Source of the DNA: Escherichia phage vB_EcoM-LTH01
Length of the DNA: 64,000 bases
Sequence record: PP430345
Strand: one strand, 5' to 3'
The translations under genes and the position numbers were made by a program. Under the pieces are notes generated by a model that had not been told where the DNA came from, searched no databases, and was given only the letters and a program-made list of their open reading frames with translations. Below, one piece after another: positions 10,603 through 42,784 of the stretch (within the stretch, counting starts at the first letter, position 1; each line of letters starts with the position of its first letter).

Positions 10603-10863
10603 TTACTTGTTTTCGTCGGAAGGGTCTTTATCTTTTTTCAAAGATAATCCCCAACGGAGGTTGATGAGGTCACTCAACAGGTGTGGGGCCACTACCGTAG
10701 GGGCATAAAGCCATACGTACCATTCAGGCAATGTATTGTTGAATCCATACCAGAGAAAGACGGCAGTCATAGCAGCCATACCTACGTTAGACCAAAACTT
10801 CGTATGAGAAGCTTTATCTGGTTCCACCGCAGAGGTCACTAGGTCTTTGAGAAATTTTAACAT
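10603..10863 (-). CDS. small membrane protein, holin-like (86 aa)
   Basis: Two hydrophobic helices (NVGMAAMTAVFLWYGF, VWLYAPTVVAPHLL) and a charged C-tail KKDKDPSDENK. Confidence 0.45.
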   Translation of the reverse strand: MLKFLKDLVTSAVEPDKASHTKFWSNVGMAAMTAVFLWYGFNNTLPEWYVWLYAPTVVAPHLLSDLINLRWGLSLKKDKDPSDENK

Positions 10864-10885
10864 AGATCACCTTCATTATCAATGT

Positions 10886-11673: not shown

Positions 11674-11683
11674 AAGTCTCCAT

Positions 11684-11703: not shown

Positions 11704-11712
11704 CATCTAAGG

Positions 11713-16044: not shown

Positions 16045-16053
16045 ATTTTATCA
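16045..16053 (-). promoter_or_regulatory. extended -10 element TGaTAAAAT (late cassette)
   Basis: Lies directly downstream of terminator 16070-16095 and 35 nt upstream of ATG 16010. Confidence 0.45.
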
Positions 16054-16069
16054 TAATATCCAGAGAATT

Positions 16070-16095
16070 AAAAGAAAAGGGAGCACGAGGCTCCC
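16070..16095 (-). terminator. rho-independent terminator
   Basis: Minus strand has stem GGGAGC / GCUCCC (6 bp, loop CUCGU) followed by TTTTCTTTT. Confidence 0.65.
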
Positions 16096-19542: not shown

Positions 19543-19551
19543 ATTTTAACA
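19543..19551 (-). promoter_or_regulatory. extended -10 element TGtTAAAAT (late cassette)
   Basis: Directly downstream of terminator 19565-19587 and upstream of SD AAAGGAGG / ATG 19524. Confidence 0.4.
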
Positions 19552-19564
19552 CGAATAAGTACAA

Positions 19565-19587
19565 TAAAAAAGGGGGCCGAAGCCCCC
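19565..19587 (-). terminator. rho-independent terminator (UUCG tetraloop)
   Basis: Minus strand reads GGGGGC-TTCG-GCCCCC followed by TTTTTTATT. Confidence 0.7.
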
Positions 19588-22810: not shown

Positions 22811-22889
22811 GTTTACACTCCTGTGTCCACTTTGTTAATATAAATATGTCCATAGCGTGAGAAGGGCCTCATCCTTGAGGCTCACGTAA

Positions 22890-26494: not shown

Positions 26495-26503
26495 ATTTTA
26501 CCA
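26495..26503 (-). promoter_or_regulatory. extended -10 element TGgTAAAAT (late cassette), with a possible -35 TTGCTT 17 nt upstream
   Basis: Lies in the 63-nt gap upstream of GTG 26473. Confidence 0.45.
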
Positions 26504-26536
26504 CAATAGATGAGCAAAAGCAACAAAGTCAAAGCT

Positions 26537-27084: not shown

Positions 27085-27093
27085 ATATTATCA
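27085..27093 (-). promoter_or_regulatory. extended -10 element TGaTAATAT (late cassette)
   Basis: Downstream of terminator 27121-27144 and 24 nt upstream of ATG 27061. Confidence 0.45.
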
Positions 27094-27120
27094 CAAAATA
27101 AAGAGAAAGTCATTTGTATA

Positions 27121-37256: not shown

Positions 37257-37322
37257 TGCTCCCGTGATATTTATTTTAACACTGAACGATTCGTTTTGCA
37301 AGAGTCTGATTTAAATCAAAGA

Positions 37323-38870: not shown

Positions 38871-40358
38871 TTATCGTCTATACCTGGAATACATCGTAGG
38901 GGCGTGAGGTCGTGGTATTGGAACAGCACGGACAATTTCTGTTTTCTCCAGATAGTTAATACCCGAAGAGATGGCATCCACCCAGTCGTCCTTACGTGAT
39001 CCAGTTGACCTCTCGCCGTCGAAAGATTCAAGTTCCTTCAATAAAGCTTCTAATGTGTCCACAGGGAAAGATTTCTCAACAATCCGTACAAATCCGTTCT
39101 GTGCTAAGTTAGCGAACGGAGAGAAGCGTACAAGCTTCTTTTTGTTACCTGGTGTTGGGTCTTTCTCAACCATGAACCCTTGATTCAATAACTCACGAGA
39201 AGATGTAGTAAATTCGGATAGACCTGCTTGACCAGGGTCAACAGGGAAGATGATCCTAACGTCATCTCCGTCATGTATTGCCTGTTTAAGAATAATCTTG
39301 TCACGCTCACCTGCTTTTTTGCAGAAGCGTCCGGCTTGTCCAGTGGACCAATCGCCAGTATCAACGAATTCATCACAATAATCACCGAACAGGTAGTAGA
39401 ACCCATCCTGATCTCGCGCTACACCTATACCTGCCGTGAAGTCAGGTGTTTTGTTACCTGTGGAACGCTCTGTACCTGCTTTATCGTAAGATCTAACCTT
39501 GTCGCAATTAAGCGGGAGATGATCTACATTTTTGAGGAAAGAACGTTTAAAATAGTTTGCACCCTGCGGACGAGCATCCCAGTTACCATGAAGAAGTCGT
39601 GCACGGTCAACCTCGTTAAGACCTTCCAACTGAGCAAGGTATTCGGGGTTGTTGATAAGCATTGGCGGGTTGTCATAAATAGTGGAAGATATGAATGTGA
39701 ACGATACGGGCTTACATTTCTTACCATAACGTTTCTTCAACTCCTCTACTGAGTCTCCCCACATGTATTGGTCATCCACACGGACGAAATAACGAATAAC
39801 TCCGTCTTTTTCAGGATTAGGATAGCCATCCTTATCGAGATACCAGTCAACCATCTTACGAAGGTAATGATCAGGATCAGGGTTGCAACTTATTACCATA
39901 CGGGAAGGGTATTTTGAGTTTGAACGCAAACGGGACATCATATATTCCAACTGTTCCCATTCGAACTGTGTTCCTTCGTCAACTCCGATAAAGGTAAACT
40001 CCAATCCCTGAATATCGAATTTATCGCTTACGTGTTGCATAGACTGCCATTTAACGGTAGCCCCGTTAGGAAATGTTGCAGTCATTTCATTTTCTTTAAA
40101 CTTAGGCTTAACTACCGGAGGTAGTTGGTTGTAAATATCCTTAGCTTTGTCGAACAAACCACCTTGTCCACGAATCTGAGGGACGGTACGACGGAACATG
40201 ATACATGCTGTTCTGGGGTCGTTTACAATCAACAAAGGCATCAACTGGAGCAGGTAGGACTTACCTGATCCTGCTGCACCACCTATAACCATTATTTGTG
40301 CGTCAGATTCGAGAACCATTTGTTGCTTTCGACTCGCTGGTGCGAATGTAGCAGACAT
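38871..40358 (-). CDS. terL: terminase large subunit (495 aa)
   Basis: Walker A motif VIGGAAGSGKSYLL. Walker B / coupling region FIGVDEGTQF. C-terminal nuclease-type acidic motifs. Confidence 0.9.
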   Translation of the reverse strand: MSATFAPASRKQQMVLESDAQIMVIGGAAGSGKSYLLQLMPLLIVNDPRTACIMFRRTVPQIRGQGGLFDKAKDIYNQLPPVVKPKFKENEMTATFPNGATVKWQSMQHVSDKFDIQGLEFTFIGVDEGTQFEWEQLEYMMSRLRSNSKYPSRMVISCNPDPDHYLRKMVDWYLDKDGYPNPEKDGVIRYFVRVDDQYMWGDSVEELKKRYGKKCKPVSFTFISSTIYDNPPMLINNPEYLAQLEGLNEVDRARLLHGNWDARPQGANYFKRSFLKNVDHLPLNCDKVRSYDKAGTERSTGNKTPDFTAGIGVARDQDGFYYLFGDYCDEFVDTGDWSTGQAGRFCKKAGERDKIILKQAIHDGDDVRIIFPVDPGQAGLSEFTTSSRELLNQGFMVEKDPTPGNKKKLVRFSPFANLAQNGFVRIVEKSFPVDTLEALLKELESFDGERSTGSRKDDWVDAISSGINYLEKTEIVRAVPIPRPHAPTMYSRYRR

Positions 40359-40396
40359 AATTCTCCTTTAGTTCTTGACTTGAACTGATAAAAGGT

Positions 40397-40405
40397 ATAT
40401 TACCA
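40397..40405 (-). promoter_or_regulatory. extended -10 element TGgTAATAT (late cassette) upstream of terL
   Basis: Downstream of terminator 40412-40451 and 39 nt upstream of ATG 40358. Confidence 0.45.
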
Positions 40406-40411
40406 TAAAAA

Positions 40412-40451
40412 GGATAAAAAATAAAGGCCAATGCATAAAAGCACTGACCTT
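40412..40451 (-). terminator. rho-independent terminator after the spanin genes
   Basis: Minus strand reads AAGGUCAGUGC-UUUUAU-GCAUUGGCCUU (11 bp including 2 G.U) followed by TATTTTTTAT. Confidence 0.6.
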
Positions 40452-40458
40452 GTCAACA

Positions 40459-40758
40459 TTATTTGCAGAACTCTGGTGGATTTTCTTTAAAAATATTACA
40501 AACGTAGGTCTGTAATCCTTCAGCACGTCTTTCTATTCTTGCAGCACGAAGATTGTTATGACTAAGAACGTCAGCAACAGTTGTCTTTGCAGAGCGTTTT
40601 TCCATAACCAGCTTAGGACCTTCTTTCTTCATAAGTTCAAGATCCGGCTTTTCGATCAGCTTTTCTATCTTAACTTCTTCAGTAGGACCACAAATTTCTT
40701 TACTCTGACAACCAACAAGACCAAAACAAAGGATAATTCCGGCGATAATCTTCTTCAT
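40459..40758 (-). CDS. outer-membrane spanin lipoprotein (o-spanin, 99 aa)
   Basis: Signal peptide with lipobox MKKIIAGIILCFGLVG|C. Directly follows the i-spanin gene with a 1-nt overlap. Confidence 0.65.
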   Translation of the reverse strand: MKKIIAGIILCFGLVGCQSKEICGPTEEVKIEKLIEKPDLELMKKEGPKLVMEKRSAKTTVADVLSHNNLRAARIERRAEGLQTYVCNIFKENPPEFCK

Positions 40759-41117
40759 TATTCCCCCAGTGATTTGTTATAGATATCAACTATCTCATCA
40801 TCCATAAATATTTCTTGTCCCTTTTTAGATTTTGCATAGTCGATTCTCATTGCCTCTACTTCATCACGTAATTTTTCCTCAGCGATGATCCGTTTTGCAT
40901 TTGCATAAGAAAGTTCTTCATTCAATCTCTTATTCTCTTCCAATGTAGAGTCAAGCTTTCCTTTGTACTCAGTAGCTTTCTTTATCCAAGCCGTGTTTGC
41001 AGCATCGTAGCCTTTGTCATATCCCACAGACTCAACGTGTCCGAGATACAGTTTTCCAGAAGTAAATAACGCAACGCCGATCATTGCGTAAATGAAATAT
41101 TTTTTAGCGGGTAACAT
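40758..41117 (-). CDS. inner-membrane spanin (i-spanin, 119 aa)
   Basis: ATG 41117 has an AAAGGAGGA SD. N-terminal TM (YFIYAMIGVALFTSG) followed by a coiled coil (LEENKRLNEELSYANAKRIIAEEKLRDEVEAM). Confidence 0.6.
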   Translation of the reverse strand: MLPAKKYFIYAMIGVALFTSGKLYLGHVESVGYDKGYDAANTAWIKKATEYKGKLDSTLEENKRLNEELSYANAKRIIAEEKLRDEVEAMRIDYAKSKKGQEIFMDDEIVDIYNKSLGE

Positions 41118-41136
41118 ATAAATCCTCCTTTTGGAT

Positions 41137-41145
41137 ATTTTATCA
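41137..41145 (-). promoter_or_regulatory. extended -10 element TGaTAAAAT (late cassette) upstream of the spanins
   Basis: Downstream of the tRNA-operon terminator and 20 nt upstream of ATG 41117. Confidence 0.45.
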
Positions 41146-41155
41146 CCGAAATCAC

Positions 41156-41185
41156 AAATAAAAAAGCCTCCCAAATGAGGGAGGC
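41156..41185 (-). terminator. rho-independent terminator closing the tRNA operon
   Basis: Minus strand reads GCCTCCC-TCATTT-GGGAGGC followed by TTTTTATTT. Confidence 0.7.
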
Positions 41186-41234
41186 TGAGGCGAAGGAGAG
41201 GAGATTATATTATTGTTATTATATGAGGGTAAAT

Positions 41235-41309
41235 TGGCTGGGGATACTGGACTCGAACCAGTGAATGTTGGAATCAAAATCCAATGCCTTACCGCTTGGC
41301 TAATCCCCA
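41235..41309 (-). tRNA. tRNA-Gln (anticodon UUG), CCA encoded
   Basis: Hand-folded canonical cloverleaf. Acceptor TGGGGAT/ATCCCCA, anticodon arm TTGGA-TTTTGAT-TCCAA, T arm ACTGG-TTCGAGT-CCAGT. Confidence 0.9.
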
Positions 41310-41317
41310 TTTTTGTT

Positions 41318-41393
41318 TGGAGCGGATAACGAGACTCGAACTCGTGACATTCTGATTGGAAATCAGAAGCTCTACCAACTGAGCTATACCCGC
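41318..41393 (-). tRNA. tRNA-Gly (anticodon UCC), CCA encoded
   Basis: Acceptor GCGGGTA/TATCCGC, D arm AGCTCAGTTGGTAGAGC, anticodon arm TCTGA-TTTCCAA-TCAGA, T arm ACGAG-TTCGAGT-CTCGT. Confidence 0.9.
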
Positions 41394-41398
41394 ATATT

Positions 41399-41475
41399 TG
41401 GTCGGTGTACGAGGATTTGAACCTCGAACCTAATGCTCCCAAAGCATTCGCGCTACCAAGTTGCGCTATACACCG
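41399..41475 (-). tRNA. tRNA-Pro (anticodon UGG), CCA encoded
   Basis: Acceptor CGGTGTA/TACACCG, anticodon arm AATGC-TTTGGGA-GCATT, T arm CGAGG-TTCAAAT-CCTCG. Confidence 0.9.
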
Positions 41476-41479
41476 TATT

Positions 41480-41560
41480 TGGCGTGAAGGTGAAGAGTCG
41501 AACTCCTTACGACTGGTTTTGGAGGCCAGCTTGCCACCGTGACAATTATGTTACCCGCAC
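41480..41560 (-). tRNA. tRNA-Trp-like (anticodon CCA), atypical 81-nt form
   Basis: Canonical loop CTCCAAA, T loop TTCGACT and CCA. However, the acceptor GTGCGGG/CCTTCAC has a C.U mismatch, and 8 nt rather than 2 precede a TTGTCA-CGG-TGGCAA D hairpin. Confidence 0.55.
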
Positions 41561-41645: not shown

Positions 41646-41732
41646 TGGTGCATTGTGATGGAGTCGAACCACCCGAGTTCTATGAACAGCAGATTTACAG
41701 TCTGCCCCGCTACCCCTACGGTCTAACAATGC
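41646..41732 (-). tRNA. tRNA-Tyr (anticodon GUA), type II, CCA encoded
   Basis: Acceptor GCATTGT/ACAATGC, anticodon arm GCAGA-CTGTAAA-TCTGC, variable arm GTTC-ATA-GAAC, T arm GGTGG-TTCGACT-CCATC. The D region is irregular, with 4 nt before the CCG/CGG stem. Confidence 0.7.
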
Positions 41733-42698: not shown

Positions 42699-42784
42699 TA
42701 GCGCGGGAGGAAGGACTCGAACCTTCATACTCCAATTACTCGATTAACGACGGTTTAGAAGACCGTTGAGATACACCCGCGCTA
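42699..42784 (-). tRNA. tRNA-like element: UCU anticodon loop, long variable arm, no D arm, no encoded CCA
   Basis: 9-bp terminal stem TAGCGCGGG/CCCGCGCTA. T arm GAAGG-TTCGAGT-CCTTC. Anticodon arm ACGGT-CTTCTAA-ACCGT begins only 9 nt after the acceptor. A 23-nt variable region carries the hairpin TTAAT-CGAGTA-ATTGG. Confidence 0.45.

Follow-up and report, generated by a model that had tools for sequence, protein, structure and literature searches.

Extended -10 promoters that drive middle or late genes while a phage protein blocks -35 recognition are known from Thermus phage P23-45, where the protein is gp39, and from phage T5, where it is gpT5.026; in T4, AsiA binds region 4 of sigma. The late promoters of T4 lack a TG, a purine at -16 (R-16) and a TTK at 17 bp, and are read by gp55 together with gp33 and gp45. 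For rV5, the type phage of the subfamily Vequintavirinae, a MEME search upstream of late genes 27-66 yielded a putative late promoter, TggTAaAAtA, with eight copies (Table S4C of that study), which was likened to the T4 late box (Kropinski et al. 2013, Virol J 10:76; PMC3606486). The same study found gp33, gp45 and gp55 to be absent from rV5 and proposed rV5 gp11 as an Srd-like switch; a conserved -35, a 17-bp spacing and conservation across genera were not reported there (PMC3606486). For Certrevirus, only an early promoter class, with a UP-like AAAA, has been described, and no phage RNA polymerase gene was present (PMC7344957). Our search of the published literature found no start-site, transcriptome, timing or in vitro data for any member of the Vequintavirinae, and a full-text search for the nonamer TGnTAAAAT returned nothing relevant.

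We analysed a stretch of 64,000 nt from Escherichia phage vB_EcoM-LTH01 (PP430345), hereafter the window, in which eight promoter-like sites of the form TG[AGT]TAA[AT]AT were found in the block of late structural genes. Judged from sequence, these elements are a further member of the promoter class already predicted for rV5. The class is not new, because TggTAaAAtA was reported upstream of rV5 late genes in 2013, and the sites described here reveal no new kind of element. What is new is the conserved minimal -35, the exact 17-bp spacing, the register between terminator T-tracts and the -35, and the conservation of position across genera. The window shares with rV5 its subfamily and the motif itself, three of its sites correspond to predicted rV5 promoters (Table 1), and several rV5 sites likewise lie directly behind terminators (t041/P040, t049/P048, t052/P051). 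It differs from rV5 in belonging to a UPEC06-like lineage whose nearest genus is Certrevirus, with a TerL ~59-64% identical to that of rV5-group phages, and in its -35 region: the rV5 sites mostly have TTGnnn, whereas three sites here use the T-tract of a terminator.

The late gene block and the distribution of the motif

The nearest match to the window was Escherichia phage UPEC06 (MW250786.1; Vequintavirinae, rV5-like), with 98.4% identity across all of window 38871-41500, and more distant relatives were Salmonella phage SSBI34, Serratia phage Kashira, the Certrevirus group, Seunavirus 4MG and the rV5 group. On the minus strand, from ~41.1 to 6.1 kb, the late block opens with two spanin genes, which are followed by terL and by the genes for portal, protease, scaffold, decoration protein and major capsid protein; a collagen-like protein comes next, and then neck, sheath, tube, tape measure, baseplate and fibres. 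This gene order was identical in every relative compared. Located 5' of the block on the same strand are tRNA genes, together with small genes that have TTGACA promoters. An Rfam scan of the window detected tRNAs only; a tRNA at 42702-42780 (minus) was called by Rfam (35.8 bits) and is missing from the ARAGORN list, and a tRNA-Tyr at 41646-41732 (minus) was called by ARAGORN and is missing from the Rfam gathering list. Within the block, the 212-aa, 565-aa and 174-aa genes (window ~29500-26540) showed only 38-83% identity to UPEC06, compared with at least 94%, mostly above 97%, for the remainder, and this region looks like an exchanged module. In line with such an exchange, the promoter-like site at 27093 differs from its UPEC06 counterpart, which consists of overlapping TGGTAAGAT and TGATACAAT.

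The first-pass annotation of this DNA listed six minus-strand nonamers, described as extended -10 elements ahead of gene starts, and the coordinates and sequences of all six proved correct. To these we added a seventh intergenic copy at 37281-37273, 19 nt ahead of the ATG of the protease gene, and a candidate internal site at 10862-10854. The next base is A in six of the eight sites, with G at 27093 and T at 10862. Every intergenic copy is oriented in the same direction as the late genes; the gap from motif to start codon is 18-38 nt, and Shine-Dalgarno sequences precede the starts (Table 1).

Table 1. Candidate promoters and hairpins of the late block, in the order of transcription, with the state of each promoter-like site in relatives
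Feature	Position in window	Strand	Sequence or structure	Relatives
Hairpin after tRNA-Gln	41186-41165	-	T-tract; 8 bp; ΔG -16.7 kcal/mol	
Candidate promoter of the two spanin genes	41137-41165	-	-35 TTTTTT (41165-41160), equal to the terminator T-tract, C at -36; extended -10 TGATAAAATA (41145-41137); ATG 41117	
Hairpin after second spanin gene	40451-40424	-	T-tract; 11 bp including G-U pairs; ΔG -16.7 kcal/mol	
Candidate terL promoter	40397-40425	-	-35 TTTATT (40425-40420), equal to the T-tract, C at -36; extended -10 TGGTAATATA (40405-40397); ATG 40358	Present in window, SSBI34 and Kashira; 4MG copy is TGGTAAACT
Candidate prohead protease promoter	37273-37301	-	TTGCAA-17-TAAAAT with TG; nonamer TGTTAAAATA (37281-37273); ATG 37253	TGTTAAAATAA in window, 4MG, Kashira and SSBI34; TGCTAAAAT in Pantoea F5M2A; TGATAAAAT in rV5
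UUCG hairpin after major capsid gene	34103-34080	-	Terminator-like; no TGnTAAAAT behind	
UUCG hairpin after 565-aa gene	27149-27124	-	T-tract; ΔG -16.6 kcal/mol	
Candidate promoter of 174-aa gene	27085-27113	-	ATGACT-17-TAATAT with TG (27093-27085); ATG 27061	In all compared but rV5
Candidate tail-completion/Neck1 promoter	26495-26523	-	TTGCTT-17-TAAAAT with TG (26503-26495); GTG 26473; hairpin-free	TGGTAAAATA in 6/6 (window, UPEC06, 4MG, rV5, Kashira, Pantoea); rV5 P056
UUCG hairpin	24862-24847	-	T-tract absent	
Hairpin directly before tape-measure gene (ATG 22016)	22067-22040	-	Terminator-like; ΔG -19.1 kcal/mol; no promoter behind	
UUCG hairpin after tape-measure gene	19588-19571	-	T-tract; ΔG -15.1 kcal/mol	
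Candidate promoter of 291-aa baseplate-region gene (gene after tape measure)	19543-19571	-	-35 TTTTTT (19571-19566), equal to the T-tract, C at -36; extended -10 TGTTAAAATA (19551-19543); ATG 19524	In all compared; rV5 copy (P048) weaker
Hairpin after tail lysozyme gene	16097-16077	-	T-tract; ΔG -12.7 kcal/mol	
Candidate baseplate wedge promoter	16045-16073	-	TTTTAA-17-TAAAAT with TG (16053-16045); ATG 16010	TG(A/G)TAAAATA in 6/6 sequences; rV5 P036
UUCG hairpin	11703-11684	-	8-bp stem; T-tract absent	
Candidate internal promoter	10854-10882	-	TTGATA-17-TAAAAT with TG; nonamer TGTTAAAAT (10862-10854); overlaps ATG of 86-aa ORF; 263 nt ahead of 1077-aa fibre gene	Kept in 4MG, Kashira and Pantoea F5M2A
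UUCG hairpin directly before last gene (ATG 7318)	7355-7336	-	Terminator-like; no promoter behind	
Terminator-like hairpin	6079	-	No TGnTAAAAT behind	

A motif search with enrichment statistics, which had been proposed as a check on the first-pass annotation, revealed a strong excess in same-strand intergenic DNA. When the whole window was counted on both strands, TGNTAWAAT was not enriched, with 9 copies found and 7.1 expected. In the same-strand intergenic DNA of the late block (1,346 nt), by contrast, TGNTAAWAT occurs 7 times where 0.13 copies would be expected; the highest intergenic count in 20,000 shuffles was 3, so that 7 was never reached. The coding sequence of the block (33.8 kb) contains 3 copies. 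Genome-wide, intergenic TGNTAAWAT sites that are not of the TTGACA type and have both a ribosome-binding site and a start codon no more than 60 nt away were nearly restricted to the late block. Chance matches of an A+T-rich nonamer within A+T-rich intergenic DNA would agree with a window-wide count that stands at expectation, but not with the same-strand intergenic excess, nor with sites that are held in position across genera while their flanks carry no information. This explanation is already refuted by the intergenic enrichment together with the positional conservation of 28 sites, and we assign it a negligible probability. On these counts and distances, the claim that the elements are promoter-like, strongly non-random, and placed just upstream of morphogenesis genes in the same orientation was borne out.

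Architecture of the candidate promoters and its conservation across genera

We compared the late blocks of 4MG, rV5, Kashira, Pantoea phage F5M2A and part of SSBI34, with orthologues identified via tblastn; of the stretches SSBI34 5000-49500 and Kashira 47000-92000, only the terL-proximal parts were used. Although the orthologous proteins share only 30-85% identity and the sequence surrounding the motif has diverged to ~zero information, the motif itself has kept its orthologous positions in another four or five genera (Table 1). At the orthologous sites of the 174-aa gene, ATGACA, ATGACT or TTTACG is combined with TGATAAAAT or TGATAAGAT.

Twenty-eight non-redundant orthologous sites, aligned on the -10 hexamer, gave the consensus c(-36), TTK (-35 to -33), a 17-bp spacer, and R(-16) T G n T A A A A T A(-6). 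T-34, T-15, G-14, T-12, A-11 and T-7 were each present in 28/28 sites, and all 28 have 17 bp between the hexamer that starts with TTK and the -10 hexamer. T-35 was found in 25 sites, R-16, A-10 and A-8 in 27 each, A-9 in 24 and A-6 in 23, and position -33 was G in 15 and T in 13. Positions -29, -28 and -19 were A or T only, and the information content was ~zero at -42 to -37 and at -27 to -20. The TG one base 5' of the hexamer is thus shared by all 28 orthologous sites, and it is present in 8/8 window sites. The window sites have TAAAAT or TAATAT as their -10, and TATAAT occurs in 0/28 conserved sites. As read from the alignment, the sites are laid out like a putative sigma-70 promoter that combines an extended -10 with a minimal -35. 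The first-pass annotation had described the elements as having no recognisable -35, which is incorrect in detail, because T-34 and a G or T at -33, preceded by T-35 in 25/28, stand at constant 17-bp spacing in the 28 orthologous sites.

The three window sites without a hairpin carry TTGCAA (37301), TTGCTT (26523) and TTGATA (10882) as their -35, and the rV5 counterparts carry TTGACA, TTGACT, TTGCAA, TTGCGT or TTGCAT. When all TGNTAAWAT matches in the six late blocks were considered, TT at -35/-34 was present in 28/32 matches in a promoter-like context versus 7/15 elsewhere; five of these seven are themselves conserved sites (the Neck1 site of 4MG and four copies of the site where the 86-aa ORF begins) that fell outside the promoter-like class because the Shine-Dalgarno filter missed them. 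At the terminator-coupled sites the -35 is a mere run of T, which could be conserved as a feature of the terminator rather than as a promoter element. T4 middle promoters have a MotA box, TGCTTtA near -30, in place of the -35. No such box was found in the window sites: TTGCTT occurs only at the Neck1 site, at -35 to -30, and the others have T-runs, TTGCAA, TTGATA or ATGACT.

Two further sequences were noted in the block. A perfect TTGACA at window 40456-40451 (minus) lies just past the spanin stop codon and abuts the hairpin upstream of terL. It is kept in 4MG and SSBI34 and reads TTGTCA in Kashira; at 46-51 nt from the -10 hexamer, it is too distant to be its -35. On the opposite strand, an antisense promoter-like site occupies window 22812-22841 (plus) in the gap between the tube and chaperone genes, with TTTACA, an 18-bp spacer and TAATAT with TG, and has no counterpart in Pantoea F5M2A.

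Terminator-like hairpins and the T-tract register

Five of the six sites listed at first follow a G+C-rich hairpin with a T-tract, and the site at 26503 stands without one, both as originally described. On the minus strand of the late block, we found nine sites that combine a hairpin with a T-tract, with ΔG from -12.7 to -19.1 kcal/mol. The six hairpins with UUCG loops reported by the first-pass annotation all exist, but the positions cited were their low ends, off by up to ~6 nt, and two of them (24862 and 11703) are not terminator-like because the T-tract is missing. The proposed division of the block into hairpin-plus-promoter cassettes fits most sites; however, four of the nine hairpins (34103, 22067, 7355 and 6079) have no TGnTAAAAT promoter behind them, and three of the eight candidate promoters are hairpin-free. 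The corresponding list of units (terL-to-capsid, neck, baseplate and spanins) also omits the candidate internal promoters at 37281 and 10862.

In the cassettes at 41145, 40405 and 19551 and in their orthologues, the last C of the hairpin lies at -36 and the T-tract begins at exactly -35, so the terminator tail would supply the -35 of these three sites. This register was read off the alignment; the hairpin-promoter distance obtained via RNAfold is unreliable, as A-U pairing with the T-tract lengthens the stems. A polymerase released at such a terminator would already sit on the -35 region of the next promoter. The cassettes might then act as functional couples in which the released polymerase re-initiates without leaving the DNA, or a phage factor might read TAAAATA; we consider this proposal quite improbable. 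If true, either coupling or reading by a phage factor would amount to a distinct late-expression device of the Vequintavirinae.

Both the tape-measure gene and the block's last gene have only a ribosome-binding site between hairpin and start codon (22073-22017 and 7356-7319, minus), and this arrangement is kept in relatives. Because both genes follow hairpins without a promoter, we infer that the terminators must leak. Transcripts that cross these two hairpins would also be compatible with a role of the motif at the RNA level, namely as an AU-rich processing site (e.g. for RNase E) in single-stranded RNA at which a long late transcript is cut, between a protective 3' hairpin and a ribosome-binding site, to give stable segments, and in 5/8 cases the motif does lie between a stable hairpin and a Shine-Dalgarno sequence. 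An RNA site, however, needs neither a TT(G/T) exactly 23 nt 5' of the hexamer nor a TG one base before it. The sites at 37281, 26503 and 10862 have no hairpin and yet keep their TTG-type -35 at 17 bp, and rV5 counterparts carry a full TTGACA or TTGACT. Since these spacing constraints act at the level of DNA, we regard a processing role as very unlikely.

Behind the terminator of the capsid gene, a conserved block at 34068-34029 (minus), common to Pantoea F5M2A and Kashira, takes the place of TGnTAAAAT. It contains a repeated TGTAC (TGTACAAT at 34068-34061 and GTGTACC at 34048-34042), followed by TAAGATAGG at 34037-34029. This block may be a different promoter or an operator, because it fits TTAGGC-17-TAAGAT without a TG. 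The leader of the tail sheath gene (window 24902-24792, minus) contains three hairpins that are conserved in Pantoea F5M2A and 4MG; the first has a 13-bp stem, in which compensatory changes affect three pairs across three sequences. No promoter motif, T-tract or Rfam match was detected in this leader. The UUCG hairpin at 11703-11684 is located immediately 5' of an ATG at 11683, and for this reason the 121-aa ORF may start at 11683 rather than at 11706.

Probable recognition of the elements and their predicted timing

The UPEC06 genome contains 37 sites with a perfect TTGACA, a spacer of 16-18 bp and TAnnnT, located in the regions of small early genes and of replication genes. Their -10 is variable, with TG in 7/37 and no base preference after the hexamer, and TAAAAT occurs in 0/37, which confirms that the late elements are distinct from the early promoter class. 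The late elements resemble E. coli sigma-70 extended -10 promoters in their TG at -15/-14, R-16, T-12, A-11 and T-7 and in a weak or partial -35. Unlike those promoters, they have a fixed TAAAAT followed by A instead of TATAAT, and they are clustered in one temporal and functional block of phage genes. The presence of two promoter classes in one genome, an early class with a strong -35 and a later class with an obligatory TG and a poor -35, is shared with the P23-45, T5 and T4 systems. The window differs from these systems in that the minimal -35 is conserved and that a -35-blocking factor was not identified here, and a similar switch would be suggested by analogy.

Given this architecture, the elements are probably sigma-70-type extended -10 promoters that are read by the host RNA polymerase holoenzyme and drive the morphogenesis genes of this Vequintavirinae phage. 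From the layout of the sites and the contrast with the early class, we infer both sigma-70 recognition and late timing. Region 2 of sigma would read TAAAAT and region 3.0 the invariant TG in its TRTG context, with region 4.2 making a weak contact with TTG or TTT. Transcription is predicted to start ~7 nt past the hexamer, which would give leaders of ~11-31 nt with a ribosome-binding site only. The first hairpin (41186-41165) would separate the late block from early and tRNA transcription on the same strand, later hairpins would attenuate transcription between modules, and the promoters would restart it, thereby setting the dosage of four modules (spanin, head, neck/tail, baseplate/fibre) relative to one another. 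Late timing would follow from reliance on the extended -10, as opposed to the reliance of early promoters on a perfect TTGACA. Any late factor or condition that weakens -35 recognition would thus shift polymerase to the extended -10 class, and this class, whose information sits in the -10 region, would therefore stay active if the TTGACA class were silenced through a loss of -35 recognition.

One point against a plain sigma-70 reading is that A-10 and A-6 are nearly invariant, which is more specific than sigma-70 requires. Because the fixed TAAAATA exceeds the needs of sigma-70, we keep a phage contribution as a minority reading, in which a specificity factor on the host polymerase, either a divergent gp55-like sigma or an appropriator, requires TAAAATA and forms a distinct late system. 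We consider this reading possible but doubtful. It would account for the near invariance of A-9 and A-8 as well, for the lack of TATAAT among the conserved sites and of TAAAAT among the early promoters, and for the confinement of the motif mostly to the late block. In addition, the AAATA that spans -10 to -6 is the same as the 3' half of the T4 late box, and this likeness was already noted for rV5 (PMC3606486); as in T4, an A+T-rich element of the -10 region stands ahead of morphogenesis genes. On the other hand, sigma-70 regions 3.0 and 4.2 have as their signature the invariant TG, R-16 and TTK at exactly 17 bp, the very features that T4 late promoters lack. The T4 late motif TATAAATA has one minus-strand copy, inside a gene (19351), and one copy on the plus strand; it is not used here, and the first-pass annotation had described it as not used consistently.

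Searches for such a factor also argue against this reading, within the scope of a sequence-level search that a very divergent factor would escape. When 229 non-structural UPEC06 ORFs were searched against Pfam and NCBIfam, no sigma-70-family protein was found among the matches listed. A match to TIGR02937 (sigma70-ECF; E=0.0018) was rejected, with 17.9 bits against a cut-off of 42.9 and spanning only residues 111-148, the C-terminal helix-turn-helix of a 165-aa HNH_3 endonuclease. In phmmer searches against all UPEC06 six-frame ORFs, no homologue of T4 gp55, gp33 or DsbA was detected, the best E-values being 0.38 for gp55 and 0.45 for gp33. In favour of a phage factor, one weak match to PF16805, the family of gp33-type late-transcription coactivators, was obtained for an ORF within the early region at UPEC06 112.9-143 kb (E=0.0074). 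At this E-value ~1.7 false matches are expected over 229 proteins, and the sub-threshold match was not recovered in reruns with concatenated or single proteins; it is probably noise. An Srd-like switch was rejected as a general explanation: rV5 gp11 today carries the annotation of an HNH endonuclease, and neither UPEC06 nor the window has a homologue of it, despite the conservation of the motif.

With host sigma-70 as the probable reader, the analysis provides a map of late transcription for an rV5-like phage. The map shows eight candidate promoters along with nine terminator-like hairpins, and it sets apart two promoter classes by the place in which their information is stored. It would be useful for annotating and engineering rV5-like phages, a group with several candidates for therapy or biocontrol, and it narrows the question of how late genes are timed in phages that have no polymerase or sigma factor of their own. 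Next to the site at 26503, the 153-aa gene at window 26473-26012 (minus) is labelled 'putative RNA polymerase' in the UPEC06 record. This label is probably a misannotation, because the RefSeq orthologues in 4MG and rV5 are annotated as tail completion/Neck1.
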